Shown piece by piece: positions 1 to 63,532 of a stretch of 64,000 bases of DNA. Below the pieces are notes generated by a model that was not told the DNA's origin, made no database searches, and was given only the letters and a program-made list of their open reading frames with translations. Source of the DNA: Candidatus Moraniibacteriota bacterium (GTDB lineage Bacteria; Patescibacteriota; Minisyncoccia; Moranbacterales; UBA1568); contig CP064989.1 in NCBI GenBank assembly GCA_016699875.1, positions 776,788-840,787 of the forward strand. The letters are read 5' to 3'. The stretch's first letter is position 1. Each line of letters opens with the position of its first letter. Both the position numbers and the translations under genes were made by a program.

Positions 1-684
1 ACGATTGAAGATCCGGTCGAATATGATATGGCAGGTATCAATCAGATCCAAGTGAATCAGCGTGCCAATCTTACCTTTGCGACGGGACTGCGCAGTATCC
101 TGCGCCAGGATCCGAATATTATTCTTGTCGGGGAGATCCGCGATGAAGAAACGTCCGGCATAGCAATTAATCTGGCAATGACAGGGCATCTTGTGCTCTC
201 GACGCTCCATGCCAATGATGCGGCGACCACGATTCCGCGATTGCTCGATCTTGGCACTGAGCCGTTCCTTATCGCTTCGACCGTGTCGGTTGTTGTGGCG
301 CAGCGGCTGGTCCGGAAAATCCATGAACCGTGTCGGGTGAGCGAGGAAGTCTCTTTGGATGTGCTTCGAAAGGAGCTCAGCGAGGAGTTGGTGCGGAAAA
401 TGTTTCCAAGGAAAGCATCTCTGCAAAAGGGGATGACTCGCGTGTATCGTGGCAAGGGTTGTTCGCTGTGTCATGGAAGCGGGTATGCGGGGCGCATCGG
501 TATCTTCGAAGTGCTTTTACTGGATGAGGCGCTTCGCCATGCTATTATGGAGCGTGCAACGGCAAGTGAAATCCAGGCGATCGCGAAGCAATCCGGCATG
601 CGAACGATGATTGAGGATGGCATCGAGAAGGTCCGCCAAGGAATAACGACGCTCGACGAAGTTATCCGAGTTGCCCGGGAATAA
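1..684 (+). CDS. pilB: Type IV pilus / T2SS assembly ATPase, PilB/GspE family, C-terminal part (5' end lies outside window)
   Basis: Reading frame open to window edge; Asp-box/His-box region ([23 protein letters not shown]), C-terminal tetracysteine motif (EPCR...[22 protein letters not shown]) typical of PilB/GspE rather than PilT; immediately followed by pilC. Confidence 0.85.
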
Positions 685-694
685 ATAAGAAAAT

Positions 695-1750
695 ATGTTT
701 TCTTCTCATATTCGATTGTCGGACCGGGCAGTGTTTGCAAAGCATCTTGCAATGATGCTCAAGAGCGGTATTTCTCTCGCGGAGGCGCTTCGCGTATTGG
801 AGATGGAAACAAAGAACGTGGCTTTTCGGAATATCCTTCAAGCAATTTGTGCCGATGTCGAGAGTGGGAAGAAACTTGCTGAGGCGCTTCGAATCCACCC
901 GAAAGACTTCGATCCGTTTTTCGTTAGTGTTATTGAAGTGAGTGAGGAATCGGGCACGCTTTCCGAGAATCTGGAATTTCTTGCAAAGCAACTTTCAAAA
1001 GAAGATATGCTCCATAAAAATATCCGGGGAATCTTGCTCTATCCATCGCTTATCCTCGGTGTTGCGGCTGTTATGGGGAGTTTTATTAGCATATTCATAC
1101 TGCCGAAACTGATCGATCTCTTCGATTCGCTCGATGTGGCGCTTCCATGGTCGACGCAAGCGCTTTTGTGGTTCGCCGCTTTGATGAAATCGCATGGCAT
1201 CCTCATTATTTTGGCGTGTTTCGGTTTTTTCTTTGCGTTTCGTTTCATGGTGCATACTCATCTCATCAAGTCGAGATGGCATGCATTGCTTCTTTCATTG
1301 CCCATAATAGGCCGATTCATTGCGGCTGTTTCTTTGGGGCGGCTTTTTCGCGGGCTGGGAATTATGATGCGAAGTGGACTTCCTCTGGTGCACGCACTTG
1401 GCGTTGAGGAAGAGAGTTTAACTAATCGCGTCTTTCAGCGATATGCTCGCGAATTGAAAGAGGGTGTCTCAACAGGCACAGAGCTTTCGGCGCTACTCGA
1501 ACGTTCAGGATTCCAACATGTGCCACCTCTTGCGACAAAGATGGTGGCGGTTGGCGAACGGACGGGGAAGCTTGATGAGAGTTTTTTCTTTCTGAGTCAA
1601 TTTTTTGATGAAGAGGTAGATACGGTGGCAAAGCGATTCTCAACACTTCTCGAACCGGCATTGCTTTTCGGGATTGCCGGCATTGTGCTTTTTATCGCGC
1701 TCTCTATTATTACCCCGATCTATTCGCTGACGGGATCACTGCAGAGATAA
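695..1750 (+). CDS. pilC: Type IV pilus assembly inner-membrane platform protein PilC/GspF family
   Basis: 351 aa; paired GspF-type cytoplasmic domains (LAMMLKSGISLAEALRVLE ... GRFIAAVSLGRLFRGLGIMMRSGLPLVHAL) with 3 TM segments; 11-nt gap after pilB stop. Confidence 0.85.
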   Translation: MFSSHIRLSDRAVFAKHLAMMLKSGISLAEALRVLEMETKNVAFRNILQAICADVESGKKLAEALRIHPKDFDPFFVSVIEVSEESGTLSENLEFLAKQLSKEDMLHKNIRGILLYPSLILGVAAVMGSFISIFILPKLIDLFDSLDVALPWSTQALLWFAALMKSHGILIILACFGFFFAFRFMVHTHLIKSRWHALLLSLPIIGRFIAAVSLGRLFRGLGIMMRSGLPLVHALGVEEESLTNRVFQRYARELKEGVSTGTELSALLERSGFQHVPPLATKMVAVGERTGKLDESFFFLSQFFDEEVDTVAKRFSTLLEPALLFGIAGIVLFIALSIITPIYSLTGSLQR

Positions 1751-1971
1751 GGAAGGTCAGAAGATGGGAGATAGAGGGTGGAAGATGGAAATTTGGAATT
1801 CAGGATACTAGGTTACGAATCATCCTACCTATTATATTAACTGTATTAACTCTTTTTCCGCTATTCCAATTCAACTCTTCCTTTCTATCTCCCGACCGAA
1901 GTGGAGGGATCTCAATCGCGTTAGTGATGCGGGAGAGAGAAGATGGGGGTTGGAAGGTAGGAGAGGGGGAA

Positions 1972-2457
1972 ATGAAAAATATGGCAAAATGTCAGATATT
2001 TAATATTCGGTACCCCAAAAGTTCTTCTCAGGGGTTTACAATCATTGAATTGCTACTCGTTGTAGCAATTTTCTTTGCTGTTGCTGGTTTTGCTCCAGCT
2101 TTTTACAACCGGTTTTTTTTACAAGATGCGGTAGTTGAAGCGGCTGATCGCATAGCGGGATCACTCCGAAATGCACAGGGATTTTCGCTTGCTGGGAAGG
2201 GGAGTCTTCCATGGGGAGTAGCTCTCAATGGTAATGCGGTTGTTTTGTTTCAGGGCAATTCATTCGCCACTCGGAATACAGCACTTGATCGGCAAATTGC
2301 TCTGCCTTCATCGGTGTCAATAAGTGGACTCAGCGAAACCGTTTTTGCTCGTGTGTCAGGGATGCCGACAGCGCCGCTCACGATTTCTCTTACTGCTTCT
2401 GGCGGCGTGTCGCGCAGCGTTCTCATGAACTCACTTGGCGTGGTGAGTCGGGAATAA
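1972..2457 (+). CDS. Type IV (pseudo)pilin-like protein with prepilin cleavage/methylation motif
   Basis: N-terminus ...KSSSQG|FTIIELLLVVAIFFAVAGFA is a class III signal peptide (G|FTxxE + hydrophobic helix); start chosen at ATG 1972 preceded by purine-rich RBS (ggtaggagaggggg); ORF track starts it at 1924. Confidence 0.75.
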   Translation: MKNMAKCQIFNIRYPKSSSQGFTIIELLLVVAIFFAVAGFAPAFYNRFFLQDAVVEAADRIAGSLRNAQGFSLAGKGSLPWGVALNGNAVVLFQGNSFATRNTALDRQIALPSSVSISGLSETVFARVSGMPTAPLTISLTASGGVSRSVLMNSLGVVSRE

Positions 2458-2505
2458 GGGCGATAAATGCCTTGCTTGAAGCGAGGGTAAATAATTGTGC
2501 TCATA

Positions 2506-2546
2506 AAAACAAAACAGGGAACGTTGAAACGTCCCTGTTTTGTTTT
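2506..2546. terminator. Bidirectional rho-independent terminator between convergent pilin gene and surface-protein gene
   Basis: Perfect 15-bp stem aaaacaaaacaggga / tccctgttttgtttt with 11-nt loop; A-run on one side, T-run on the other. Confidence 0.8.
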
Positions 2547-2579
2547 TTGCTGCCCTATCTAAATTCAATGCTCTACATG

Positions 2580-3030
2580 CTACATCCCCGCCCCCTGCAC
2601 CTGCCAGTAGAACGTAGAACACGTTGTGTCTCTGCATCCGCACTTCCATCGGCCTCCTTGTATACTGCAGGTCATACCAACCAGGTAGGCGGGATCGGAA
2701 GCGCTGGTTGTAGAGATATCGGTATCGGTGAGAGTGGTAGAGACACTTCCTTGGCACCAGTCTCCATTCAAGGCTCCGGTACAGGTTCCGGTGAAGGAGG
2801 TCCAGTCAGATATACCGGGATCATAGTAGTAGCCTTTGGTATAGACGATACGGGTAGTGTCTCCGGTGATACCGAGGGTGGCGTTTATCGTGTGGGTATC
2901 ACTGCTGGTACAGGTGGTGGAGATGAGAGGGGTGTTACTCACAAAGACGTCATAGGGGGCACCGTAGCCGGTGTAGGTTGAGGTGGTGAAGTTGGTGGGG
3001 GTGACGGTGGAGCAGGAGGTGGGGGTGGAG
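2580..3030. repeat. Left copy of ~450-bp inverted repeat (C-terminal cassette of surface protein); partner at 9197..9650
   Basis: Reverse complement of 2580-3030 aligns by eye to 9197-9650 with only ~11 substitutions; mirrored spurious ORFs in the six-frame track (2472..2981+ vs 9249..9479-; 2431..2757- vs 9473..9676+) confirm it. Confidence 0.85.
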
Positions 3031-5117
3031 GTTCCTCCTGTAGTGAGTGGGGTGTTCATGTCGGTCTGTATTTCTGACTGGGTGAGGGCAGTGTTGTAGA
3101 TTCTTACGTCGTCGATTCTTCCATTCCAACTCTGATTGCTCCAACCCATACCGACATGGACGGGATTGGTTGAGGATTGAAGTGTAGCAGTGATATTTGT
3201 TGATTGAGTACTCTGAACACCATTCAAGTATACCGTGAGCGTATTGTTTGTATCATCAAAGATGCCAGTGACATGAGTCCAGGTATTGAGGGAGAGCGTG
3301 GTTGTGGTAGTTGCGGTATACCAGATTCCTCCACTGGAGAATCCTACCTGTATTTGTCCACTGTTGGTTTCTTGGAGGTGGTAGTCGGAAGAAGAATCGT
3401 TTACCTTGGTGATAATATCTCGATCTCCGGAGAAACTCGTGGGATACACCCAGGCAGAGAGCGTGAGGGATGAGGTGAGATTAAGCGTGCTTGGGTTGCC
3501 GATATTCACCAGATCATCCACTCCATCAAAAGTGAGAGAGTCGCTGTATTTTCCGGTCGTATTCCAGCTCGTGCCGTTTTGGAGCGCCCCCGTATTCGTG
3601 TGTCCGGAAACATCTTCAGTCGTAGTTCCTGATCCTTCATTGAAGTTAAGTCCGAGCATGAGAGAATCAGAGACCGGAGGCGCCTGATCAGTCGTAGCTT
3701 GAGATACGGATGAGTAGGAAGAGGTATTGTTTGCTGCATCTGTGGCTCGTACTCGGTAGCGGTACGTAGTAGAGGCAGAAAGTCCGGTATCTTGGTAAGA
3801 GTTCGCGGTGGGAGTTCCTACTTGAGAGAAAGTTGTGCAGGATGATCCTGGGCAGCGTTCAACTTGATAGTTGGTAACACTAATGTTGTCTGTGGAAGCG
3901 GTCCAGGTGAGATCGATGGTGCTGGATCCGCCAGTGGTCGGAGTAGCGGCTTGAAGGTTGGTGGGAGTAGTAGGAGGAGTGGTATCGGGAGCCTGAGTCG
4001 TGGCTCCAACGACATTGCTCCATCCGCTGGTATTCCCTGCAGCATCGACGGCTCTTACATGGTAGGAGTAGCCGGTAGAAGCAGTGAGACCGGAATCAGT
4101 GTAGGGAGAGTTTTGTGTAGTTCCAATTTGGGCGAAGTTGCCACAAGAGAGACCAGTGCAACGTTCGATGTCATAGCGGACGACTCCGATATTATCGGTA
4201 GCAGCGGTCCATGAGACAGTGATGCTGGACTCTGAGGTGGCATTGGCAGCGAGTCCGATAGGAGAAGTGGGAGGGGTGGTGTCGGGGGTGGTATTGAGAG
4301 CAACATCACCGTTTGCCATGGTACCGCTGGCTGGGGTGCCTGAGGTGGAGTCAGAGTAGATTTCGAAATCATCCCAATAGGTATGATTGTTGGCATCGTG
4401 AGCCCATTCGGGACCATTATCTGACCAGTTGGATATTATGTTTAACTCATTCCATTTTTGGGATGAACTAAATCCTGTCTTCTCCCATTCCAAATAATCG
4501 TCTACCCAAATACGAAAAATCGAGCTACCTCCTCCTTTAGAGTAGAATTCCAACTTGTGCCACTGGGTATTTCCTATCAGCCCTGAACCGTAATTATTCC
4601 AATTGTTACAGGTTCCGTCAAGACACTCGATGTTTGTGTATATAGGACCTCCTGTTTGCTCCATCTGTCCGTCAGCAATAAAGCTATTTGTTGGATAATT
4701 CCCAGTTATCCGAATCCATTTTGATCCAAATTTATGATCAACATCATTGTCAACTCTTACCCACATGCGTATGAGGAACTCATTAGTGTAACTCCATGAT
4801 CCAAGGACGGCACTACTGTATGACGCAGGGTCATTCCATGCTACAGAACCATTCCAGTTGCATTGCATCATGTGAGATCCTCCGTGCGGGGAGTTACCAT
4901 CAATAGCCGTTAAGACATTGGTACATTTGTCATTTGAGCCACCCTGACTCCATAAGTTGGTATTTCCGCTTTCGAGGTCGTCGTAGAAGACTCGGGTAGC
5001 AGCGGAAGCGTTTCTGTTTCCCAGAAAGAGCATTGCCATGATGGACAATACGAAAAAACTCGCTCGCAAAAAGAGTGAACTTGTTCGAGAAATATTCATA
5101 AGATTTCTATTTTTCAT
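2580..5117 (-). CDS. Large secreted surface protein: signal peptide, novel N-terminal domain, 2x fibronectin type III, LamG/concanavalin-like domain, C-terminal Cys-rich ~148-aa domain
   Basis: 845 aa; N-terminal signal peptide (FFVLSIMAMLFLGNRNASAATRVFYDD); two FN3 repeats (ITVSWTAATDNIGVVRYDIERCTGLSC...YSYHVRAVDAAGNTSGWS and IDLTWTASTDNISVTNYQVERCPGSSC...YRYRVRATDAANNTS); LamG_3-type motif (NGRIDDVRIYNTALTQSEIQ); C-terminal domain near-identical to that of 7479..9650. Confidence 0.85.
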   Translation of the reverse strand: MKNRNLMNISRTSSLFLRASFFVLSIMAMLFLGNRNASAATRVFYDDLESGNTNLWSQGGSNDKCTNVLTAIDGNSPHGGSHMMQCNWNGSVAWNDPASYSSAVLGSWSYTNEFLIRMWVRVDNDVDHKFGSKWIRITGNYPTNSFIADGQMEQTGGPIYTNIECLDGTCNNWNNYGSGLIGNTQWHKLEFYSKGGGSSIFRIWVDDYLEWEKTGFSSSQKWNELNIISNWSDNGPEWAHDANNHTYWDDFEIYSDSTSGTPASGTMANGDVALNTTPDTTPPTSPIGLAANATSESSITVSWTAATDNIGVVRYDIERCTGLSCGNFAQIGTTQNSPYTDSGLTASTGYSYHVRAVDAAGNTSGWSNVVGATTQAPDTTPPTTPTNLQAATPTTGGSSTIDLTWTASTDNISVTNYQVERCPGSSCTTFSQVGTPTANSYQDTGLSASTTYRYRVRATDAANNTSSYSSVSQATTDQAPPVSDSLMLGLNFNEGSGTTTEDVSGHTNTGALQNGTSWNTTGKYSDSLTFDGVDDLVNIGNPSTLNLTSSLTLSAWVYPTSFSGDRDIITKVNDSSSDYHLQETNSGQIQVGFSSGGIWYTATTTTTLSLNTWTHVTGIFDDTNNTLTVYLNGVQSTQSTNITATLQSSTNPVHVGMGWSNQSWNGRIDDVRIYNTALTQSEIQTDMNTPLTTGGTSTPTSCSTVTPTNFTTSTYTGYGAPYDVFVSNTPLISTTCTSSDTHTINATLGITGDTTRIVYTKGYYYDPGISDWTSFTGTCTGALNGDWCQGSVSTTLTDTDISTTSASDPAYLVGMTCSIQGGRWKCGCRDTTCSTFYWQVQGAGM

Positions 5118-5223
5118 ATTCTACAATTTTATGAAGCATATGAAGTAATTGTAGCACAATCCGTATGGAGGGTGAGAGAGTTTGACTGAGAGTTGTCAAT
5201 GATGAGGGTAGCTCTGGAAATAA

Positions 5224-5234
5224 TCTGATATACT
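5224..5234 (+). promoter_or_regulatory. Extended -10 promoter (cTGaTATACT) ending 6 nt before ATG 5241; implies leaderless mRNA
   Basis: TGnTATACT motif read at 5226-5234; no Shine-Dalgarno between it and the start codon. Confidence 0.45.
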
Positions 5235-5240
5235 ATCAAT

Positions 5241-7448
5241 ATGTATAAAAACACTTCACGATTTCTTCAGTGGACACTTATCACTCTCGTTCTGTCCATA
5301 GTGGCAGGCTTGTATTTTTGGTACGGAAGCAAAGCAGGAGTGAGTATTGATACTCCCAGCATCACAGATACTACAGTAACGAGTGGGCTCATAGCACACT
5401 ACACTTTTGATCCGCCGGATGTGGTGTGGTCAGACGCGATAAGTGAAATTAAGGATCACACAGGAAATGGGTACCATTTCAATGCAGTTGGCTTAGGCGA
5501 ATCTAATCTCGAGCTGGGGCATATAGGACAGGCGCTTAATTTTATTCCGGGTAACGCTACCTCTTTACTTAGAACTGAGGCAGCATTTGATGCTCTTGCC
5601 ACCGGATCGATATCAATGTGGATAAAGTGGGATGGAACAAGCGTAGGAACTAGCGGGACACTCCTTGATCGAGGAGACTGTGGGTCGAATAATGGCCAAT
5701 TCCAGCTCTATATGGATATGGCAGCAAGCGCTATTGGTCTTTGGATGACTGCCGTGAGTGCGGGATGCTCAGCAACTGTCGACGCAGAGACAACGCTTGC
5801 AATTTCAGATCCGAAAGCATGGCATCATATAGTTTTTACGGACAGCTCTTCAGGGCATGTTGTCTATATTGATGGCAGTCCTCAGGCGCTTTCTTATACA
5901 TCGGGAAGTTCATCGGTAGATTTCTTCTTTGATAACGTGGGAGGGAGTCAGGAATATCAAATTGGCAGGAATAGTTCAGAGGAATTCGGCGGCCTTATAG
6001 ATGATGTCCGCATATACAATCGCGCGATCTCCGCTTCCGAAGTCTACCAACTTTATACTACTGGAACTGCGAAAGTAAACGCGCCGACAGAAGACCCCCT
6101 CTCCCAATCCCTCCGTGGCTACTGGAAACTCGACACCGGAAGCGGCACCTCTGCCACGGACTCTTCCGGCAATGGGAACACCCTTGCTATGACTGGTTCT
6201 CCCGGTTGGGTCACCGGAAACATCGGTCCCTATGCCCTCGACTTTTCCGGAAGTGGACAATACCTCTCCATCGCCTCTCCCTCAAGCGCTCTCGACTTTG
6301 CCGATGGAGCGAGCTTCACTCTGACTGGCTGGTTTAATCGAGATACATTCACCAGTGACCATACCATCCTCTCCACCAAGAGCGGACAATCCACTGAAAG
6401 TGATGGATATATTGCCTATATTGACGATGCAACCGGTCAGCTTATCATTCGCTTTGATGAAAATGGAACCACTGAGGCAAGAACATTTACATCTTCATCT
6501 ACCTTTACTATCGCTACTGGTTGGCATAACTTTGCTCTCTCTTGGAATGAAAGCGCTCCCGATGCCGTTCTCTATATCGATGGTAAACCTGATGGGTCAG
6601 GAAGCGGAACCGTCTTTGCCAGTATGGGAAATCTTTCCAACACCAATGCTTTCTATATTGGTGCTGAAACCGATGCTGGGAATCCTTTCGACGGAAAACT
6701 TGATGATATCCGTATCTATGGTTATGCCCTTAGTGCTGATCAGGTGAAGAAGATATATAATACCACCAGTCCCACGCAACCGATCGATACAAGTCTTGTT
6801 GGACATTGGACTTTCGATGGGGCGGATGTTGACTCGGCGAACGGTATTGTTCGCGATAAGTCAAGAAGCGGGAATGACGGAACATTCAATACGCCGTATG
6901 TCTCGCCGGCTGTCGGAAAATCGGGACAGGGCATCTCTTTTGACGGAACCGGATGGGAATTTATCCCATTAGCTTCAATGCGAAACTTGGAGATGGGCAC
7001 TGGAGATATGACCGTCAACGTGTGGGTACGTCTGGTGAGCAGTAATGCCGACACATACTTTGTGAACAAAAAAGACTCTGGCCTTGAATCGGGAGAAGGA
7101 TATTCTTTTTACTACTCCAACTCTCTTTCGAGTCTAGTCGTCTTAATCGGAACCGGATCGGCACATACATACTACGACACTTCGACAGCCTCTCTCCAGG
7201 ATGATCAATGGCATATGGTTTCATATGTTGTCGATAGGGACGCTGGAATCTCATTCTATCTCGACGGAACGTTTCTCGATATGGATGGAACAAGTGTGTA
7301 TAATGGAACTGATATAACGAACGCGTCGGAATATCCCGGTCTCGGGTATTCTGACGGAAACGGCGATGTTGTTTCCTACGATGATATTCGGATTTATAAT
7401 AGAGTGCTTTCTTCCGATGAAATTTCGAACTTATATCGTATAATGTAG
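5241..7448 (+). CDS. Membrane-anchored secreted protein with three LamG/concanavalin A-like (LamG_3) domains
   Basis: 735 aa; N-terminal signal-anchor (WTLITLVLSIVAGLYFWYG); three repeats of the LamG_3 signature (GGLIDDVRIYNRAISASEVYQLY; GKLDDIRIYGYALSADQVKKIYN; SYDDIRIYNRVLSSDEISNLY); divergently transcribed from 2580..5117. Confidence 0.8.
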   Translation: MYKNTSRFLQWTLITLVLSIVAGLYFWYGSKAGVSIDTPSITDTTVTSGLIAHYTFDPPDVVWSDAISEIKDHTGNGYHFNAVGLGESNLELGHIGQALNFIPGNATSLLRTEAAFDALATGSISMWIKWDGTSVGTSGTLLDRGDCGSNNGQFQLYMDMAASAIGLWMTAVSAGCSATVDAETTLAISDPKAWHHIVFTDSSSGHVVYIDGSPQALSYTSGSSSVDFFFDNVGGSQEYQIGRNSSEEFGGLIDDVRIYNRAISASEVYQLYTTGTAKVNAPTEDPLSQSLRGYWKLDTGSGTSATDSSGNGNTLAMTGSPGWVTGNIGPYALDFSGSGQYLSIASPSSALDFADGASFTLTGWFNRDTFTSDHTILSTKSGQSTESDGYIAYIDDATGQLIIRFDENGTTEARTFTSSSTFTIATGWHNFALSWNESAPDAVLYIDGKPDGSGSGTVFASMGNLSNTNAFYIGAETDAGNPFDGKLDDIRIYGYALSADQVKKIYNTTSPTQPIDTSLVGHWTFDGADVDSANGIVRDKSRSGNDGTFNTPYVSPAVGKSGQGISFDGTGWEFIPLASMRNLEMGTGDMTVNVWVRLVSSNADTYFVNKKDSGLESGEGYSFYYSNSLSSLVVLIGTGSAHTYYDTSTASLQDDQWHMVSYVVDRDAGISFYLDGTFLDMDGTSVYNGTDITNASEYPGLGYSDGNGDVVSYDDIRIYNRVLSSDEISNLYRIM

Positions 7449-7478
7449 AACATGCTAATTTTTTAGTGGACTTTTGTT

Positions 7479-9650
7479 GTGAAAACGCTTCGCGTAGTTA
7501 TGTTCGTTGCTCTGGGTTGTATTTGCGCGTCGAAAGCGAGCGCTGCCACGCGAGTTTTCTATGACGGCTCTGAGGCGGGAAATACCAACCTGTGGAGTCA
7601 GGCTGATTATCGGGATAAGTGCACATCGGTTACTTCGGCTGCCGATGGTGTTACGGGGCCATATTCCGGGTCGAGAATGATTCGCTGCAATACCGATGGC
7701 ACGGTTGCTTGGAATACGCCGAAATGGTTTGAGACAATGGCACTGAATTCTTTTCCTTATACGAACGAATTCTTGTTTCGAGCAGAAGTTCGAGTGGATA
7801 AAAATCACGCGAGAAGCGGTGATTCTCCGAAAAAGATTCTCCGTTGGTTTACCGGGAGTATTGACTACTTCGATTCAATCCATGATTCTTCAGGTTTCAA
7901 GAATGAGGGGCCAATTACATCTGGGTCGTATTGGGGTGATGCTCCCGGAGATAACACAGCATCATCGCAGAAATGGGGGAAAGTCGAGGTATACTATAAC
8001 AGTTCGAACAGGAAGCTTCGAGAGTGGCATGATGACGTGCTTATCCGAGATGAAACAACGGGAAATCTCGGTGGGAAATGGTACCCTTTGTATATCACTT
8101 CAAATTATGAACAGGTGCCATCGGGAGATAGTTTGAACTACGTCTATTTTGATGATGTGGAGATTTATTCTGATGCTACCTCTGGCACTCCATCTGCTTC
8201 TGGTACCATGGCTAATGGGGATGTATTGGTAAGTGGTGGAAGCGGCGGCACCTCCGACACTACTCCTCCCTCCAGTCCCACAAATCTTGCCGCTAATGCT
8301 ACGAGTGCCTCCGGTATTTCGGTCTCTTGGAATTCGGCTACTGACAATGTTGGGGTAGTTGGCTATCAGATTGAGCGCTGTACCGGACTCTCGTGCTCGA
8401 ATTTTACTCAAGTCGGAACTCCTTCTTCATCTCCGTTTGTTGATTCAAATCTTTCTGCTTCTACTGGCTACTCCTATCATGTGAGAGCGGTAGATGCTGC
8501 CGGAAACACGAGCAGCTGGAGCAATGTGGTTGGTGCCACGACTCAAGATGTTGCACAAACTCCTACTGTCACGCTTTCGGCAAATCCGACCAGTATCGCG
8601 TCAGGGTCTTCTTCTGTGCTCACATGGAGTAGTACAAATGCTACCAGCTGCACCGCCTCTGGAAGCTGGTCTGGCACCAAGTCAACGAGCGGTACTCAGT
8701 CCGTTTCGCCAACCTCGACAAGCACTTATACCCTCACATGCACCGGAACGGGAGGGAGTGCAAACCAGAGTGTGACGGTAACAGTCTCTGATCCAAACGA
8801 AGTTATCATTGATAACACCGACACCGCATCTGTCTCTTCTTCTGGGAGCTGGCTTCCATCAACTGCCTATCCCGGATACTATGGAAGCGATTATTTCTAC
8901 TCTTCCACCACAGCCGGAGAATGGTTCCAATGGACCGCATCTTCTCTTGTTCCAGGAACCTACGAGGTGTATGCCCGATGGCTGGCAGTCACCGGAAGAC
9001 CAACTGATGTGAACTATCAAGTCACCCATGCTTCCGGTGCCGCAACAGTCGGACCGGTTAATCAGGAGATAAACGGATCCCAATGGAATCTTCTCGGTAC
9101 TTACAGCTTCAATACAACCGGAGCGGTCAAAGTGATTGGAACTGCAACCGGATGGGAGGGAACCGCTGCTGACGCCGTACGATTCCTCAAAGTGACATCC
9201 TCCACCCCACAACCCTGCTCCACTGTCACTCCCACCAACTTCACCACCTCAACCTACACCGGCTACGGTGCTCCCTATGACGTCTTTGCGAGTAACACCC
9301 CTCTCATCTCCACCACCTGTACCAGCAGTGATACCCACACGATAAACGCCACCCTCGGTATCACCGGAGACACTACCCGTATCGTCTACACCAAAGGCTA
9401 CTACTACGATCCCGGTATATCTGACTGGACCTCCTTCACCGGAACCTGTACCGGAGCTTTGAATGGAGACTGGTGCCAAGGAAGTGTCTCTGCCACTCTC
9501 ACCGATACCGATATCTCTACAGCGAGCGCTTCCGATCCCGCCTACCTGGTCGGTATGACCTGCAGCATACAGGGAGGCCGATGGAAATGCGGATGCAGAG
9601 ATACAACGTGTTCTACGTTCTACTGGCAGGTGCAGGGGGCGGGGATGTAG
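7479..9650 (+). CDS. Large secreted surface protein, paralog of 2580..5117: signal peptide, shared N-terminal domain, FN3, Ig-like domain, CBM-like jelly-roll domain, shared C-terminal Cys-rich domain
   Basis: 723 aa; signal peptide (VMFVALGCICASKASAATRVFYDG); FN3 (ISVSWNSATDNVGVVGYQIERCTGLSC...YSYHVRAVDAAGNTSSWS) ~85% identical to FN3 of paralog; Ig-like (VLTWSSTNATSCTASGSWSGTKSTSGTQSVSPTSTSTYTLTCTGTGGS); domain with GTYEVYARW...VNYQVTHASG...INGSQWNLLGTYSF (carbohydrate-binding-like); C-terminal 148 aa ~97% identical to paralog. Confidence 0.85.
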   Translation: MKTLRVVMFVALGCICASKASAATRVFYDGSEAGNTNLWSQADYRDKCTSVTSAADGVTGPYSGSRMIRCNTDGTVAWNTPKWFETMALNSFPYTNEFLFRAEVRVDKNHARSGDSPKKILRWFTGSIDYFDSIHDSSGFKNEGPITSGSYWGDAPGDNTASSQKWGKVEVYYNSSNRKLREWHDDVLIRDETTGNLGGKWYPLYITSNYEQVPSGDSLNYVYFDDVEIYSDATSGTPSASGTMANGDVLVSGGSGGTSDTTPPSSPTNLAANATSASGISVSWNSATDNVGVVGYQIERCTGLSCSNFTQVGTPSSSPFVDSNLSASTGYSYHVRAVDAAGNTSSWSNVVGATTQDVAQTPTVTLSANPTSIASGSSSVLTWSSTNATSCTASGSWSGTKSTSGTQSVSPTSTSTYTLTCTGTGGSANQSVTVTVSDPNEVIIDNTDTASVSSSGSWLPSTAYPGYYGSDYFYSSTTAGEWFQWTASSLVPGTYEVYARWLAVTGRPTDVNYQVTHASGAATVGPVNQEINGSQWNLLGTYSFNTTGAVKVIGTATGWEGTAADAVRFLKVTSSTPQPCSTVTPTNFTTSTYTGYGAPYDVFASNTPLISTTCTSSDTHTINATLGITGDTTRIVYTKGYYYDPGISDWTSFTGTCTGALNGDWCQGSVSATLTDTDISTASASDPAYLVGMTCSIQGGRWKCGCRDTTCSTFYWQVQGAGM
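9197..9650. repeat. Right copy of ~450-bp inverted repeat; partner at 2580..3030
   Basis: See left copy; identity starts at the domain boundary (PQPCSTVTPTNF...) and stops exactly at the stop codon. Confidence 0.85.
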
Positions 9651-9786
9651 GGGTGAATGGGATGGATAAAATGTGAAATGGGAGCGAGAGTCTTGCGCGG
9701 TGTTGTTTTGGATGGAGAGTCTGACTTATAGAAGTGCGAATGTGGTATACTTGAAACAAGTTCGGATTGTATGAAGAAAATATCGT

Positions 9787-11703
9787 ATGGGCATACAAGA
9801 CCTCGATGAGCAGCTTCATAAACACGATGGAACGCCGCGTGAGCCGTTATATCAAACAAAAGAATTCGATCCGAGTCGTGTTTCGAATGACGTTGAAAAG
9901 TTGTCACTTGAAAAAACAAGCGGATGGAGCGCTGTTCGTAAGCGGTTTGCAGTCGATCAAACAAAGGCGGTTCATCTCGGTATGTGGGCAATCGGCGTGA
10001 TTACCCTGGTAGCGCTTCTTGCGGGAACATTCGTTCGGATTCAACAGTCTTTATTTTCGCAAGATCGTGTGACTGTTTCCGTGACGGGACCGAGCAATGT
10101 GAATAGTTCGGATATCACGGATTTCGTCATCTCCTACGAGAATGCCAACCGATCGGGACTTGCTGATGCGGAATTGATCGTTTCTTATCCGCCGGGATTT
10201 ATTCCGGAAGGGAATGAAAGCACCTTCCGCAATGACGCTTCATCGAGCACGGTTACGATCGGCACTATTAATGCCTTTGAGAAAAAGACGCTTGACTTCT
10301 CCGGGAAGTTTTATGGGTCAAAAGATTCAATCGCGTATATTCACGCTGAATTGCGGTATCGACCGAACAACGTGCAGAGTCAATTCTCATCAGCCGGACA
10401 GAAGAGCGTCAACTTGAGGAGCGCATCACTTGCAGTAGAGCTGGAAGCGCCGCTTTCGGTACCGCCATCGGGAGAAGTGAATTATTTAGTGAATTACGAA
10501 AATACGAGCGATGCAACGCTTTCGAACATACGCATGAAAGCGGCATTTCCCTCAGGTTTTTCTCTCAATGATTCCGATCCGAAGCCGTCTGAAGGGGAAG
10601 TAGTATGGTATCTGGGAAGTATTGCTGCGGGCGAACGCGGGAAAATTCGCCTGACCGGAAATATGAGTGGCGTGCCCAATGAAACGAAGACGCTCAAAGT
10701 TGAGTTTGGAACCTTTCAGGGTGATAATACATTCTTTGCCTATAGCGATGCTGAGCGTACAACAAGAATAGTGGCAGCACCTTTCAGTATTCGACAGTCT
10801 TTGAATGGTTCGATGCCGGGAGCGGTAAATCCCGGTGATTCTTTGCGGTATACGGTGTCCTATCGAAATGACAGCGAGATAGCCTTGCGAGAAGCTATCA
10901 TCACCGTGGAATTGGAGGGGGATGCCCTTGATTTCTCCCAGCTTCGTCCGGAGAAAGGGGCTTATGATAGTCTTCGGAAAACGATTACTTGGAAAGCCTC
11001 TGATATCCAACAACTCGCAAATCTTACCTCGGGTGCTTCAGGGAAAGTCGAGTTTGCTGTGCCAGTTCGAGATGATCTTGTCCCGAAGAGTGTGCTGACA
11101 AAGAACTTCCAAATAAGGACAATAGCAAGAATTGAGAGTCCCGATGTTCCCAATCCAGCCGGAGCCAATAAAATTGTTGCAACCGATACAATGTGGGAAA
11201 AAGTGAATTCCCGACTCCTTCTCGAAACCGCTGGGTATTACCAGGACAGCACGCTGCCGAACACGGGTCCTATTCCTCCGGCAGTCGGCAAGAGCACTAC
11301 CTATACGATGCATTGGTTGTTGTCGAATACGACAAATGATGTGACGGGAGTGGAGGTGTCGGCTGATCTTCCAACCGGCGTCGCGTGGACCGGGAAAACG
11401 TTTCCGAATACTGAGAACATCTCTTATAACGAACGCACAAATAAGATTATATGGAATGTCGGGAGTCTTGGTGTTGGAGAGGGAATCCTTTCGCCAAAGC
11501 GAACCGTGGTTTTTCAGGTGTCAATCCGTCCGGAGGTAAACCAGGTGGATACGTCACCGTTGTTGCTCGGTATGTCATCTGCCAAGGCAACAGACGTCTT
11601 CACGAATGAGACGATTCAATCGACTGCATCGGAGAAAACAACGAACCTCCGAGAAGACGATTCTCTTCCTTCGAATAGCTCTCGGGTCGTGAATGGAGAA
11701 TAG
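9787..11703 (+). CDS. Membrane-anchored surface protein with four tandem DUF11/CARDB-like beta-sandwich repeats
   Basis: 638 aa; N-terminal cytoplasmic segment then TM (LGMWAIGVITLVALLAGTF); four ~110-aa repeats each with a 'VxYxxxYxNxS/G' pattern (VISYENANRSG; LVNYENTSDATLSN; YTVSYRNDSEIAL; TMHWLLSNTTNDVTG). Confidence 0.7.
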   Translation: MGIQDLDEQLHKHDGTPREPLYQTKEFDPSRVSNDVEKLSLEKTSGWSAVRKRFAVDQTKAVHLGMWAIGVITLVALLAGTFVRIQQSLFSQDRVTVSVTGPSNVNSSDITDFVISYENANRSGLADAELIVSYPPGFIPEGNESTFRNDASSSTVTIGTINAFEKKTLDFSGKFYGSKDSIAYIHAELRYRPNNVQSQFSSAGQKSVNLRSASLAVELEAPLSVPPSGEVNYLVNYENTSDATLSNIRMKAAFPSGFSLNDSDPKPSEGEVVWYLGSIAAGERGKIRLTGNMSGVPNETKTLKVEFGTFQGDNTFFAYSDAERTTRIVAAPFSIRQSLNGSMPGAVNPGDSLRYTVSYRNDSEIALREAIITVELEGDALDFSQLRPEKGAYDSLRKTITWKASDIQQLANLTSGASGKVEFAVPVRDDLVPKSVLTKNFQIRTIARIESPDVPNPAGANKIVATDTMWEKVNSRLLLETAGYYQDSTLPNTGPIPPAVGKSTTYTMHWLLSNTTNDVTGVEVSADLPTGVAWTGKTFPNTENISYNERTNKIIWNVGSLGVGEGILSPKRTVVFQVSIRPEVNQVDTSPLLLGMSSAKATDVFTNETIQSTASEKTTNLREDDSLPSNSSRVVNGE

Positions 11704-11746
11704 TGATCTGGTTCTTGACCGAGACTTTTGTTTCGGGGTAGGGTGA

Positions 11747-12913
<1,167 letters not shown>

Positions 12914-12940
12914 GAGGGACTGTCTCAGTGTGTCTGGGAT

Positions 12941-12969
12941 TTGACAATCTGAAAGGAACACTCTATACT
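12941..12969 (+). promoter_or_regulatory. Sigma70-type promoter TTGACA-17-TATACT upstream of rpoB leader
   Basis: ttgaca 12941-12946, 17-nt spacer, tatact 12964-12969; followed by ~300-nt untranslated leader before rpoB. Confidence 0.55.
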
Positions 12970-13266
12970 CCCATGACAGTCGAAATGAGAGCGAACTCTC
13001 AGGGAATCACGATCATGGACAGAAGCCCCTCGGAATTCGCAGCGGTTTGAAGTGGAGCCGGAAAAGGAAAAGATTGCAAAGCAAGGAAGGGGAAGATATG
13101 ATAGAAGGAGGAAGTGTACGAAAGGGTCTTTTTCAAGCGAATGTCAACGCTTCTGTCTCGGAGATATAACAATTCATTGTAAGCGAATCTAATTTCTCAT
13201 CTCCTGCCGTCTTTCGGGAGCGTTTTTTGTTCTCCGAGAGGCGGGAGAAGGGATGAGCGTCTTTCT

Positions 13267-16200
13267 ATGCCCAAAAAAGAAGCGGTCAGAAAAGAAGAGA
13301 AGGTACTGAAGATTCGCGATTCGTTTCGTTCGGGATCGTCCCTTTCGACGCGAAAATTCTTCAAGCGGCGCATTATGGTGTCGCTTCCGAACCTTATCGA
13401 CGTGCTTACAAGTTCGTACATGTGGTTTTGGGAGAAGGGTTTCAAAGAATTGCTCGAAGAAGTGAATCCTATCCGTGATTTTACCAATAAAGATCTGGAG
13501 CTTCGCTTGGGTGACTACTATCTTGACGAGCCGAAATACGATGAAGTGACCGCCAAAGCAAAGAACATTTCCTATGAGGCGCCGCTTCGCGCCAAGGCGA
13601 CGCTTACTTTCAAGAAAACGGGAGAAGTGAAAGATCAGGAGATTTATCTTGGCGAATTTCCGATCATGACCGATCGGGGGACATTTATTATAAACGGTGT
13701 TGAGCGCGTCGTTGTGAGTCAGTTGATTCGTTCTCCGGGAGCGTTCTTCACCATGAACTATCAGAAAGGTAAGAAGCTTTTCGGTGCAAAAATCATTCCG
13801 AATCGTGGCGCGTGGCTTGAGCTCGAGACCGATCTCGACGGAGTGATCTCTGCGAAGATAGATCGGAAGCGGAAGGTGCCGGTGACGGCGCTCTTGAAGG
13901 CGTTTGGCTGCGGCAATGACGAGACGCTCCGAGGTTTGTTTGCCGATACGGATACGGGGGAGGTGCGCTATATCGAGGAAACTCTCTCGAAGGATCCGAC
14001 TCGCACCCAGGGTGAAGGATACAAGGAAGTCTATAAGCGACTTCGTCCGGGTGACTTGGCGACCGAAGAAAATGCGAAGCAGATGATTGACTCGATGTTT
14101 TTCAATTACGAGCGCTACGATTTTGGAAGTGTTGGGCGGTATCGCCTCAATCAGCGGCTCGAAACGAACCGTGAAGACCTCGAGGCAAATCGCGTGCTGA
14201 ATGTCGATGACTTGGTGCTTATTATCCGCGAAATCATCAGGCTTAACAACGATCCGGAGGCGAGACCGGATGATATCGATCATCTGGGCAATCGCCGCGT
14301 GCGCGCCGTGGGTGAGCTTATTCAGAACAAGCTACGCGTAGGGCTCTATCGCATGGTGCGAAATATCAAGGATCGCATGAGTACTTGTGATGTTGAGACG
14401 GTGATTCCGGGACAGCTCATCAACCCGAGACCGGTCGCGGCAGCGGTGAAAGAATTTTTCTCGAGTTCGCAGCTTTCGCAGTTTATGGATCAGGTGAATC
14501 CGCTGGCAGAGCTTGAACACAAGCGCCGTCTCTCGGCAATGGGGCCGGGCGGACTTACGCGTGAGCGAGCGAGTTTCGAAGTGCGCGATGTGCACTCATC
14601 GCACTATGGGCGTATTTGTCCGGTGGAGACGCCGGAAGGACCGAATATCGGCTTGGTTGGACATATGGCGACCTATGCGCGCGTCAATGAATACGGATTT
14701 CTCGAGACTCCCTACTTGCGCGTCCAGAAAGATATCGCTGTTGAAGATGCTCAGGAATTGGTAGGAAGGATTCTGAACGAGCCAATTGCCGGCAATGAAG
14801 TCGGTACATTGATCGACGAATCACTTGCCGGGAAAATCGCAAGGGAGCGAAAGGGTGGCACGGTTCGAGTAAAACCGTTCATTACTCTCGCTATCGATTA
14901 TCTCAATGCTATTGTCGAAGATCGAAAAATTATCGCACATGCCGGTATCGAAACTGACGAGAAGAACAATATTCTGGAGCCGCTTGTTGAAGCTCGTGTG
15001 AATGGTCATCCGGAGATGATTGAGGCGGAGCGCGTAGACTATGTGGATGTTTCTGTGAAGCAGTGCATTTCCGTGGCAACCTCGCTCATTCCATTTTTGG
15101 AACATGACGATGCAAACCGCGCGCTCATGGGTTCGAATATGCAGCGCCAGGCGGTGTCTTGCGTGGTTCCTGACGCGCCGCTCGTGGGGACGGGTATTGA
15201 GGATAAGGCGGCGGCTGATTCCGGACAGGTGATTCTTGCTCGGCAAGATGGCGAAGTAATCGAGGTGGATGCGAGTCATGTGGTGGTAAGGGAATCGGCG
15301 CCGATCGGTTCGAAGAAGGCTCATTTTGATTATGTATACGCGCTCAAGAGTTTTGCCAAGTCAAACAATTTCACGAGCATGAACCAAGTGCCGCGTGTCG
15401 CGAAAGGGCAACTGCTCAAGAAAGGTGATCTCATTGCGGACGGTGCCTCGACGGATCGCGGCGAGTTGGCGCTCGGGCAGAACGTGGTTGTCGCATTTGT
15501 TCCGTGGCAGGGCTACAACTTTGAGGACGCCATCATCATGTCGGAGCGATTGCTGCATGAGGATCGCTACAGCTCTATTCATATCGAAGACTTTTCTCTT
15601 GATGTGCGCGACACGAAGCTTGGTCCCGAGGTAGTGACGCGCGATATCCCGAATATCGGTGAAGATCGTCTGAAGAACTTGGATGAACAGGGAATTATCC
15701 GTATCGGTGCCGAGGTGTCTTCCGGTGACATCCTGGTTGGGAAAATCTCCCCGAAGGGGGAGGGTGACCTCACGGCGGAAGAACGATTGCTTCGCGTTAT
15801 CTTTGGTGAGAAGTCGCGCGATGTGAAAGATTCGTCGCTGTACCTTCCACACGGTGAGCGCGGAAAGGTAGTGGATGTGAAGATATTTTCTCGAGAACAG
15901 GGCGACAAGCTCTCCATGGGCGTGTTTCAGCAGGTGCAGGTTTCGGTGGCGCAGCTTCGAAAGGTTTCGGTAGGGGATAAGTTTGCCGGCCGCCATGGAA
16001 ACAAAGGCGTGGTTTCTCGCATTGCGCCGATCGAAGATATGCCGTATCTCGAAGATGGTACGCCGGTTGACATGATCTTGAATCCGCTCGGCGTAGCGAG
16101 TCGTATGAACATCGGGCAGATTCTTGAAACACATCTCGGATGGGCGGCAAAGAAGCTTGGTTATACAGTGGCGACGCCGGCGCTCGATGGCGCGACTGAA

Positions 16201-31420: not shown

Positions 31421-33085
31421 CTATCTCTCCGATGCAAGGGCGGCATCAAGTTGTTTCTGATATTCAAGATCTTTCTCGGAACTCTGCAGATCATCAATAG
31501 TATCTTCTTTGAATGAGAGTCGTTTGGCAAGATCGTTTCCAAGGAAAACAACGATATCACTCTGATCGTATTCTTTGAATATGTCATGAATAGTATCGTC
31601 TTGGCTCCCGGTTTGGAGCGAGAGTTTCATGGCTATTTCATTGGTGGTATAGACGGCTTCGGTGCTTGCCCGGCGGAAGATGCGGCTTGTATCAAGCGTA
31701 TTGTTTTCGGACATCGAATATTCGGTTGATTGAACTTTCGGAGCGATGCGAACTTGTTTCATGTGGAGATTCTCGGTAAGAAATTGCATGACTCTTGCTC
31801 CGAGCGAAGGATTGTCCGAATTGTTAACGAGGGTGATGCGAGCATTTTCCGTGTCGATCGATTCTTGGCGAGATCTTAATTGGTCGAGATCGAAGATATT
31901 CTGTGCGAGCTCGCGTGTTTCAACCCAATCGCCAGTTCGAGGCACGAGGATAAACATAGAAACCGAGCCAACGGGAACATGCGAAACACGCAGGAGGCTA
32001 TCTTTTTTCCATGCGTCAATGACGGCGGTGGAGATATTGGTAGTGTCGAACTCGTCGGCGAGCCCGATGAGACTCTCTATGTTAGCGAGAGAAAGGTCGG
32101 TTTTGATGTGATTTCCAAGTGTATCGATAACGCCGGAGATTGCGAGTGGATTGAGGAATATTTGGAGAGAGAACGCCTTTTTCTTGAGAGCCGCAAGAAC
32201 AGCTTGCTGGCGTTTGGCGCGTCCGAAGTCTCCTTCCGGATCGCCGTGTCGTTCGCGGACATATTTGAGTGTAGTTGCGCCGTCGAGGTCCTGCCACCCT
32301 TTCTTGACGGAGAATGTTTCATAACTGTAATTTGGTCCGGGAAAGCGCGAGTCGAAGAGATCACGTTCGACATAGATGCTGATGCCGCCAACGCGATCGA
32401 TAATATTGATAAATCCGTCATAGTCGAGTGTGGCAAATGCGTGTATGGGAAGTCCGGTTATTGTTGAAACAGCTTGCTTGATAGTATCTGCGCTTTCATT
32501 GTTCGCTCGATCGATTTGGTAGAGCGCATTTAGTTTGGTAAATGTTTTCGTGTCGGGTATTTCCACGTAAAGATCGCGCGGAAGGGAGAGGAGTGCGATT
32601 TTCTTGCGCGAAAAATCGAAACTCGCAACCATGATCGTGTCGGTAAGATTTTGTCCGGCGGTTTTTTCATTCGCTTTTCCAAGAAGGAGAATATTCGTGC
32701 GTCCTTCTGACTCTCCGGGAAGAAGGCTTCTTTCGCGATGAAGGATTGGCGTAAGGAGCGATGTTGCGCCATGTAACGTATCGGAGAGGGCGGTATCTTC
32801 TTGAGGGTCGATACTCATAGCTCTTGTTGCGCTGCCGATCTTCCAAGAAAAGTATGTCAAAAGCGAGAGCGTAACCAGTAAAAGCAATGGGAGTGTCCAG
32901 AGGAAGATCCGCAGAAACTTCCGGTGGTGCTGAGGATGTTGTTGTAATCGTTCAAAAGTGTCTTGCTGCTGACCGAAGATAGGCATGGATGTCGTATGGG
33001 GACGGCTCAAAGGGGATGCCTGCGCAAAGGGTGTGGTTGGCGCACCCGTCTTTATTCGGAATGGTTTTCTTCGAAGACTGTCCAT
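31421..33085 (-). CDS. LytR-CpsA-Psr (LCP) family cell-envelope phosphotransferase, with LytR_C-type C-terminal domain
   Basis: 554 aa; cytoplasmic N-terminus, one TM, LCP core (ILLLGKANEK...DTIMVASFD...SLPRDLYVEIP). Confidence 0.8.
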   Translation of the reverse strand: MDSLRRKPFRIKTGAPTTPFAQASPLSRPHTTSMPIFGQQQDTFERLQQHPQHHRKFLRIFLWTLPLLLLVTLSLLTYFSWKIGSATRAMSIDPQEDTALSDTLHGATSLLTPILHRERSLLPGESEGRTNILLLGKANEKTAGQNLTDTIMVASFDFSRKKIALLSLPRDLYVEIPDTKTFTKLNALYQIDRANNESADTIKQAVSTITGLPIHAFATLDYDGFINIIDRVGGISIYVERDLFDSRFPGPNYSYETFSVKKGWQDLDGATTLKYVRERHGDPEGDFGRAKRQQAVLAALKKKAFSLQIFLNPLAISGVIDTLGNHIKTDLSLANIESLIGLADEFDTTNISTAVIDAWKKDSLLRVSHVPVGSVSMFILVPRTGDWVETRELAQNIFDLDQLRSRQESIDTENARITLVNNSDNPSLGARVMQFLTENLHMKQVRIAPKVQSTEYSMSENNTLDTSRIFRRASTEAVYTTNEIAMKLSLQTGSQDDTIHDIFKEYDQSDIVVFLGNDLAKRLSFKEDTIDDLQSSEKDLEYQKQLDAALASER

Positions 33086-44342: not shown

Positions 44343-44344
44343 AT

Positions 44345-63234: not shown

Positions 63235-63532
63235 GAGCACTACGTACGGAGAAACAGCTTTCTCCAGCGTTTTTTCTCACTGTATTCCTTGTGCTGAAAT
63301 GCTGAGTTTTTTCGGTTGTATTGGAAAGACTTTCATTTCCGCAGAAATTCACCTTGACAATCAGGACTTGCCTTCTTTTCTCGACGATGCGGAATGCGGG
63401 GAAGGGTGGCAGGCACAAGAGAGTAGGTGAAGCGATGTGCCGGTCGGGTAAAAGCTGCCTGACCGGCAACCGAAGGTCCGAAAGGCTCTCGTCCCGCAAG
63501 GGACGGAAGTTTCTCGGACAACAATGAAAAGC

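Follow-up and report, generated by a model that had tools for sequence, protein, structure and literature searches.

A cysteine-rich C-terminal domain apparently homogenised by gene conversion between two divergent surface-protein genes of a Moraniibacteriota bacterium

How did two genes for otherwise divergent secreted proteins come to end in almost the same 450 nucleotides, and what might the shared end do? The question arises in a 64,000-nt stretch of the chromosome of a Candidatus Moraniibacteriota bacterium (contig CP064989.1 of assembly GCA_016699875.1, positions 776,788 to 840,787; hereafter the window), where genes A and B, on opposite strands, encode multidomain proteins with a common cysteine-rich C-terminal domain (CTD). 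A first inspection of the letters (the sequence-only reading) had described the two gene ends as an inverted repeat of about 450 bp and about 97% identity. A repeat search of positions 1-14000 returned one strong inverted repeat at this place. Its arms, 452 nt long, 96% complementary and 6167 nt apart, encode the last 147 residues of the two proteins. A repeat of such length and identity cannot have arisen by chance within 64 kb. When the module was used as a tblastn query, the two arms were its only copies in the window.

We aligned the two gene ends with 100-150 nt of flanking sequence. As the sequence-only reading had claimed, identity set in at the domain boundary (PTSCSTV in A, PQPCSTV in B) and ceased directly after both TAG stop codons; in 30-nt bins beyond the stops it fell to 13-30%, no more than is expected at random. 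Neither identity well below 90% nor identity running past the stops, the two outcomes named beforehand as contrary to this pattern, was seen. The CTDs were 96.5% identical as DNA. Over the last 145 codons we counted 15 nucleotide differences, not the 11 or so substitutions estimated by eye, and these comprised 12 synonymous and 3-4 non-synonymous changes.

The remainder of the two proteins presented a different picture, with identities of 26-76% across the parts outside the CTD. Both begin with a Sec-type signal peptide ending ASA/A (…NASA/ATRVFYDD in A, …KASA/ATRVFYDG in B). In protein A this is followed by an N-terminal domain of about 230 residues, two FN3/immunoglobulin (Ig) domains, a Laminin_G_3 domain, a Thr/Ser/Pro linker and the CTD; in protein B, by the N-terminal domain, one FN3 domain, an Ig-like stretch, a Golvesin_C domain, a linker and the CTD. 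The first FN3 domains were 76% identical as protein and 68% as DNA, below the earlier estimate of about 85%; for the N-terminal domains the estimate of about 50% was close, the measured values being 47% (protein) and 49% (DNA). The middle parts, consisting according to Pfam of the second FN3 and Laminin_G_3 in A and of the Ig-like stretch and Golvesin_C in B, were 26-37% identical and non-homologous. A weak second inverted repeat at the start of the mature N-terminal domains (Table 1) is ordinary paralogy and no conversion.

Divergence between A and B was estimated by the Nei-Gojobori method. For the CTD, the synonymous divergence (dS) was 0.124 and the non-synonymous divergence (dN) 0.012; in the N-terminal domain (dN 0.586) and the first FN3 (dN 0.198), dS was saturated. 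Between the window and a sister-species metagenome-assembled genome (MAG), the housekeeping genes rpoC, gyrB and ftsK gave dS values of 1.2-1.7 at 85-97.5% protein identity. The body of gene A was then compared with its ortholog in a relative (locus L005): the dS was 1.25 and the protein identity 74%. The corresponding values were 0.75 and 80% for the two orthologous CTDs, and 0.14 and 97% for the CTDs of A and B. CTD(A) was thus nearer to its paralog than to its ortholog, a one-sided comparison because no ortholog of gene B was found.

Taken together, these sequence comparisons indicated that the CTD was copied between genes A and B by non-reciprocal homologous recombination, that is, by gene conversion, and that this happened recently. 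The transfer postdates the split from the L005 lineage, at a far lower divergence than that between the window and the sister MAG. Because the differences (about 3.5%) are almost all synonymous, with a dN/dS of about 0.1, both copies have been functional and under purifying selection since the transfer. A homology-dependent conversion tract would be limited to the module: the upstream domains (LamG versus Golvesin_C) and the sequences after the stops are non-homologous, so the tract cannot extend into them, which would account for the sharp edges of identity.

Table 1. Features of the window around genes A, B and C (positions in the window; strand as given)
Feature	Position	Strand	Description
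pilB fragment	28-684		ahead of pilC
pilC	695-1750		ahead of the pilin-like gene
pilin-like gene	1924-2457	+	prepilin N-methylation motif; convergent with gene A
terminator-like hairpin	2518-2535	-	about 45 nt past the gene A stop, between A and the pilin-like gene
gene A	2580-5117	-	845 aa
left arm of inverted repeat	2580-3031	-	3' end of gene A: last ~148 codons and TAG stop; encodes the Cys-rich CTD
weak second inverted repeat, 77%	4940-5004, with 7541-7605	-	start of the mature N-terminal domains of A and B, ATRVFYD..E.GNTNLWSQ
gene C	5241-7448	+	735 aa; N-terminal hydrophobic anchor, then three Laminin_G_3
gene B	7479-9650	+	723 aa; GTG start as listed
right arm of inverted repeat	9199-9650	+	3' end of gene B: same CTD and TAG stop
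DUF11-repeat surface protein gene	9787-11703	+	directly downstream of gene B

The pattern is not confined to this locus. We scanned species-representative genomes with two conserved peptide motifs and obtained 35 loci, most of them in MAGs labelled as members of the candidate phyla radiation (CPR), namely Moraniibacteriota, Saccharibacteria, Peregrinibacteria, Paceibacterota, Ryanbacteria and Peribacteria; 7 of the 35 carry a doubtful Bdellovibrionales or Burkholderiales label. In the sister MAG CAYQPQ01, three CTDs (L002, L003, L004) shared 98.6-99.3% protein identity on bodies that were 35-41% identical. In the complete 1.05-Mb genome CP064994.1, which holds eight CTD copies, the values for three of them (L013, L014, L015) were 96.5-99.3% and 23-50%. 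In most such pairs, DNA identity came on about 450 nt ahead of the stop and ended there; the pairs L013/L015 and L003/L004 were exceptions, with identity that reached further upstream. Isolated low-identity bins within identical tracts, for example between L013 and L014, gave a mosaic pattern. With a metagenome scan included, four independent homogenised sets were recognised: the window, CAYQPQ01, the ERZ7245xx/CALMES01 population and CP064994.1. Tract profiles cover pairs of the window, CAYQPQ01 and CP064994.1 sets, and the third set is represented in them by the cross-set pair L002/L005 only. The homogenised copies of CP064994.1 lie hundreds of kb apart, and conversion there is therefore ectopic and independent of local inverted geometry.

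Damaged copies were also found. One CP064994.1 locus (L017, 10001-10420) is broken inside the domain and is still 96-98% identical as DNA to its intact paralogs, and it belongs to one homogenised set; conversion evidently reaches pseudogenes as well. A second locus of that genome (L019, 10001-10252) is a 3' fragment of a CTD gene, and the gene at L001 (7363-8479) apparently consists of two overlapping open reading frames (ORFs). As judged from these genomes, homogenisation of the CTD represents recurrent concerted evolution, seen in no fewer than three further genomes of this clade, and is not a single accident. With the dS contrast, the closer paralog and this recurrence, the proposal of the sequence-only reading, gene conversion or cassette transfer of a module of about 147 residues in place of ancient paralogy, has gained considerable support.

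What kind of domain is exchanged? The module contains eight cysteine residues, fewer than the 9-10 first reported. It matched nothing in Pfam (E ≤ 10) or NCBIfam (E ≤ 1), and neither a single-sequence nor a profile search of PDB sequences gave a match, in agreement with the earlier remark that no sorting motif or annotated family could be recognised. A profile search of 1.84 billion representatives (clusters at 50% identity), along the lines that had been proposed, returned more than 1,000 representative clusters: 1,067 proteins passed E ≤ 1e-3, and 699 passed E ≤ 1e-10. In the 154 best hits, the domain stood at the C-terminus 63 times, at the N-terminus directly behind a signal peptide 60 times and inside the protein 9 times, and in 21 hits it made up essentially the entire mature chain. 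The family consensus reads C-H…P.G[FY]GA.Y.V…C…G.G…YIY..GY…W…G.W..G.A…Y.V.Y.C.W.G.WKCGCRD..C…WQLQ.F; six cysteines are conserved family-wide and two more in the subfamily of the window, whose members always end …FYWQ[IV]QGAG[MQLR] at the stop. Ten distant members likewise showed no Pfam match on the domain. So far, the family has been found in genomes that appear to be of CPR type.

Proteins A and B end …CSTFYWQVQGAGM, with no hydrophobic tail. We found no LPXTG, PEP-CTERM or Por_Secre_tail-type signal in the module. A C-terminal sorting signal was rejected, since many family members carry the domain at the N-terminus or in the interior of the protein. In the close subfamily, the domain is joined to FN3, LamG, Big_7, Big_13 and a sialidase-like carbohydrate-binding module (CBM). 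Distant members combine it with GH26, GH16, apiosidase-like, polysaccharide-lyase-like and beta-helix domains, CBM60, M64 peptidase and MopE repeats. The contexts of two stand-alone members contained no common conserved partner gene. On the contig of family member P0159 (genes 6704-8050 and 8001-8654), the gene for a seemingly stand-alone domain runs into the 3' end of the gene before it, which has a faint M23 peptidase match; the two may have been one gene, now split, that fused a peptidoglycan hydrolase to the domain, and wall targeting would agree with this.

An AlphaFold2 model of the module was confident and all-beta (mean predicted local distance difference test score 95.8, predicted template-modelling score 0.89). 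In the structure comparison, which like the model had been suggested at the outset, the fold matches were weak: against Ig/FN3-like domains, CBM21, CBM56 and beta-GRP, no more than 75-100 of the 147 residues superposed, with template-modelling scores of 0.34 at most and E values of 0.007 or more. These results showed that the module is a compact all-beta domain of a large family for which the libraries searched hold no model. According to the predicted structure, it is probably a beta-sandwich-like, disulfide-stabilised extracellular domain without a described relative. From the strand register, C119 is predicted to pair with C128.

By analogy, we infer that the CTD would be a shared binding or retention module, with a role comparable to that of S-layer homology (SLH) domains or of the wall-binding regions found on S-layer proteins in Lactobacillus. 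This reading is favoured because the domain is terminal, comes without a transmembrane segment or sorting motif, is present in many copies in a tiny genome and occurs at either end of proteins or alone, and because its partners are adhesin-like arrays or enzymes that degrade polysaccharides or peptides. The module would tether different functional heads, here lectin-like LamG and FN3 arrays and elsewhere glycosidases, lyases and peptidases, to one lineage-specific ligand. The ligand would most likely be a polymer of the cell's own envelope, with a host-surface glycan as the alternative; our ranking places the self-envelope before a host or substrate glycan, in which case the domain would be a new CBM, and a protein docking partner third. 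If all copies must fit the same ligand, converted and hence identical copies would be tolerated or even favoured. On balance we consider it probable, though by no means assured, that the CTDs form a conversion-homogenised, unmodelled family with such a binding or retention role, and that the inverted orientation of the two genes is incidental.

Several points weigh against this reading. The residues of the conserved Cys/His pattern (C-H…CGC…C) could coordinate a metal instead of forming disulfides. The restriction to CPR derives from a motif-based genome scan, and some of the MAG labels (Bdellovibrionales, Burkholderiales) are apparently wrong. Divergent CTDs, 46-63% identical (L012, L016, L018), are also present in CP064994.1; homogenisation therefore acts on subsets of copies, and the argument that all copies match one ligand is weakened. 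The members labelled Saccharibacteria (L024, L027, L030, L031), in which the domain is N-terminal, behave in the opposite way to the Moranbacteria-type C-terminal copies: their paralogs within a genome are 43-63% identical, without homogenisation, and between orthologs of this type the domain has kept less identity than the remainder of the protein (74% vs 91% and 71% vs 84%). A rapidly evolving surface for host contact would explain such divergence no less well than a self-anchor. Concerted evolution may also be a neutral by-product of sequence identity for which selection is unneeded.

Other accounts of the near-identity and of the geometry were weighed on the same data. That purifying selection on an ancient shared domain, or an assembly artefact, produced the near-identity is barely conceivable. 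The low dN/dS does mark the domain as clearly constrained; ancient paralogy with selection at the protein level is nevertheless excluded because the synonymous sites are homogenised too, next to domains in which they are saturated, and because CTD(A) is nearer its paralog than its ortholog. Constraint on the nucleotides themselves, such as a structured RNA, is unlikely to revive this account, as the between-species dS of CTDs is 0.7-0.9. The artefact was rejected because the arms differ at 15 positions, each is preceded in frame by a different domain and bordered by different flanks, and assemblies made independently, the closed genome CP064994.1 among them, show the same pattern. A mobile-element cassette was likewise rejected, the ORFs scanned containing no transposase or integrase and identity stopping at the stop codon. 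The sequence-only reading had further proposed that the repeats might invert the segment between them, and a programmed or recombination-driven flip that varies surface-protein expression, in the manner of slpA/slpB or a shufflon, would suit a repeat of such length, identity and perfect geometry. The bracketed segment of about 6.2 kb holds the 5' parts and the promoter region of A and B, a shared 123-nt divergent intergenic region and the whole of gene C, whose 3' end lies 30 nt upstream of gene B. RecA-type recombination could physically take place across such arms, inversion of a comparable slp segment of 6 kb is known from Lactobacillus acidophilus (PMC3666127), and because the flanks are asymmetric (a hairpin after A only, the DUF11 gene after B), inversion would change which gene is read into DUF11. 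However, a crossover in the arms would attach the A body to the B arm and the B body to the A arm, so that both genes would be rebuilt with three residues swapped. No expression switch would result, because the segment itself contains both starts, with their signal peptides, and the intergenic region. Neither a silent copy nor an expression site is present, and Pfam scans of 33 of the window's larger ORFs detected no recombinase, invertase or integrase domain. The inverted isomer was not retrieved by exact-protein look-ups for B and C or by a 52-nt exact scan of metagenome contigs. Nor is the arrangement conserved: homogenised CTDs of relatives lie on different contigs or hundreds of kb apart, and neighbouring CTD genes, 62-88% identical as DNA, are direct (L044, L001, L049, L062), convergent (L043, L030) or divergent (the window, L027). 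We infer from these dispersed copies and mixed orientations that the inverted geometry is incidental. There is good support for conversion of a discrete module that encodes a domain; an inversion switch is unlikely, and we would give it only a very slight chance.

The role of the module was weighed in the same way. A substrate- or host-targeting CBM of a new family, which would steer enzymes and lectin arrays to a polysaccharide and would not anchor them to the cell itself, is rather unlikely, and of the alternatives it is the one with the most in its favour: carbohydrate-linked partners dominate (GH26, GH16, apiosidase-like, polysaccharide lyase, CBM60, LamG, Golvesin_C and the sialidase-like CBM), CBM21, CBM56 and the domain with which beta-GRP binds beta-glucan are among the weak fold matches, the aromatic residues Y61, Y65, W74, W89, W126 and W140 are conserved, and the faster evolution of the domain in Saccharibacteria-type orthologs points the same way. 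However, the module showed no significant sequence or structural similarity to any known CBM family. Peptidases and metal-binding repeats also occur among the partners, many members stand alone, and eight copies per 1-Mb genome, on unrelated bodies and at either terminus, are no less what wall-anchoring modules would show. That the module serves docking between proteins or their oligomerisation is improbable. It would then act in the manner of dockerin and cohesin, joining its carriers to one scaffold (S-layer, pilus or other surface protein) or assembling the paralogs with one another. The terminal, multi-copy module on diverse enzyme and adhesin bodies, homogenised within genomes as if matched to one partner, would suit it, and in the sister MAG, where the cluster has relocated, the pilin-like gene is still next to the LamG and CTD genes. 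However, no partner candidate emerged, stand-alone copies are common, and divergent CTD types coexist in one genome. A binding or retention module tied to the cell's own envelope remains our preferred reading. A bolder reading, which we entertain as possible and hold only tentatively, is that the WKCGCRD domain is the CPR counterpart of SLH and dockerin, a disulfide-locked plug joining a variable surface proteome to one receptor on the cell's own envelope or on the host, and that the Moranbacteria-type plug is kept in step with its receptor by recurrent conversion among dispersed paralogs.

The surroundings of genes A(-), C(+) and B(+) were examined next. A type IV pilus gene set (the pilB fragment, pilC and the pilin-like gene) borders gene A. 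The window is a core chromosomal region: besides the features in Table 1, it carries tgt, rpoB, rpoC, ftsK, ribosomal protein genes, gyrB, ftsA, ftsZ, comEC, the EF-G gene and the start of the 23S rRNA gene. No terminator-like hairpin was found downstream of gene B. A DUF11 neighbour also follows the CTD gene at L007, and a LamG gene is followed by a CTD gene in the relatives L004 and L005. The sister MAG (L004, L002) bears an implausible Bdellovibrionales label; its rpoC and gyrB products are 97.5% and 93.6% identical to those of the window, and gyrB of the window and of a Moraniibacteriota MAG are 86% identical. These were the closest genomes, and they place the bacterium in the CPR, most likely in the Moranbacteria lineage. 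Its homolog of the pilin-like gene (86% identical) lies directly upstream of LamG and CTD genes at another chromosomal position (L004, 5947-10441). This cluster comes after rpoC-ftsK in the sister MAG, and the window's cluster comes before DUF11-tgt-rpoB; a DUF5671 gene directly follows ftsK in the window, and in the sister MAG the CTD gene L002 lies ahead of the DUF5671 gene. From gene order, the pilin-like, LamG and CTD genes appear to have relocated as a block, and the surface-protein clusters appear to lie at synteny breakpoints. A 2.8-kb Logan contig (SRR11674035) contains an identical tgt gene and the end of the DUF11 gene.

Some further observations concern the proteins and genes of the window. 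The N-terminal domain of A and B (residues 40-272 of A, window 4300-5000; residues 23-249 of B, window 7545-8225) had no Pfam match even at E ≤ 10. At the level of motifs (a VF.D.FESG…W start, …IWVD… and a Y.DD.EI end), it resembles the polysaccharide-lyase-like part of family member P0048, a non-significant hint at a PF14099-like jelly roll; BLASTP of the gene A domain against family members with polysaccharide-lyase-like regions gave no more than this likeness of motifs. A 169-codon ORF antisense to the left arm (2472-2981, +) has a proline-rich, low-complexity translation; it is almost certainly a shadow of the Thr/Gly-rich coding strand of the CTD and not a gene. A LytR-CpsA-Psr family protein is encoded at 31421-33085 (-). 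In Gram-positive bacteria, enzymes of this family join secondary wall polymers to peptidoglycan; the gene suggests that polymers of this kind, to which wall-binding modules might bind, are present in the organism. The ComEC-type channel is divided between two overlapping ORFs (DUF4131 and Competence, 42882-44342; metallo-beta-lactamase, 44267-45202); the division could be natural or could stem from a frameshift or an error in sequencing. Just ahead of the 23S rRNA gene, which starts at 63527, the window encodes a second PilB/MshE-type ATPase, full-length and carrying an MshEN domain (58565-60325), followed by an 887-residue TPR protein (60470-63133).

CPR bacteria are thought to be ultra-small episymbionts, and little is known about how they display surface proteins and attach to hosts. 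A domain family of more than 1,000 clusters at 50% identity, with up to eight copies in a 1-Mb genome and no Pfam or NCBIfam model, marks secreted proteins with adhesin-like or polysaccharide-degrading bodies in such genomes. Its sharply bounded and repeated homogenisation offers a clean natural case of concerted evolution at the level of a module in genomes of very small size, and it shows that dispersed repeats undergo homologous recombination there, which bears on genome stability and on assembly breaks in MAGs. A profile of the domain would improve the annotation of CPR surface proteomes, and as a small, expressible domain it is a candidate for binding studies; if the plug proposal is true, it would provide a sequence handle for listing the surface-exposed proteome of CPR bacteria and a reagent for finding the attachment target. 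The mechanism, concerted evolution of a terminal module shared by surface-protein paralogs, is known; the domain and the CPR setting are new. A literature search for work on a Cys-rich CPR surface domain or on concerted evolution in CPR found nothing relevant.

Of the known systems, the Lactobacillus genes for S-layer proteins are the nearest in layout. Their paralogs share a conserved C-terminal wall-binding region of about 125 residues (PMC3666127). As with A and B, opposite surface-protein genes lie a few kb apart and share a near-identical C-terminal module of about 125-150 residues on otherwise divergent proteins; the Lactobacillus module is a non-covalent anchor to the wall (teichoic acid). 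A and B differ in having no sequence relation or detectable fold relation to these proteins, in that both genes are complete, and in that there is no silent copy, expression site or shared 5' recombination region. The distribution of the CTD is like that of the non-covalent wall anchors of Gram-positive bacteria (SLH, CWB2, LysM, SH3b and choline-binding repeats), which are terminal, occur in many copies per genome and are found at either end of unrelated secreted enzymes and adhesins. CTD proteins also resemble those carrying such anchors in having no transmembrane segment and no sortase signal. Unlike these families, to none of which it has a Pfam match, the CTD is a single disulfide-rich beta domain of about 140 residues and not a set of short tandem repeats. 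The most conserved stretch of the family, the C-terminal hairpin and loop WKCGCRD..C…WQ.Q, was not seen in the sequences of CBM21, CBM56, CBM39-like beta-GRP and Ig/FN3 domains.

Gene conversion among paralogous genes for outer-surface adhesins occurs at babA/babB of Helicobacter pylori and at the opa genes of Neisseria. In these systems, the receptor-binding parts are divergent and near-identical terminal segments are exchanged by RecA-dependent, non-reciprocal recombination. The CTD genes share with them the sharp edges of identity and the clustering of copies by genome and not by ortholog. They differ in what is moved: conversion at babA/babB and opa transfers the variable part and generates antigenic or adhesive variants, whereas conversion of the CTD transfers the constant module and leads to homogenisation.

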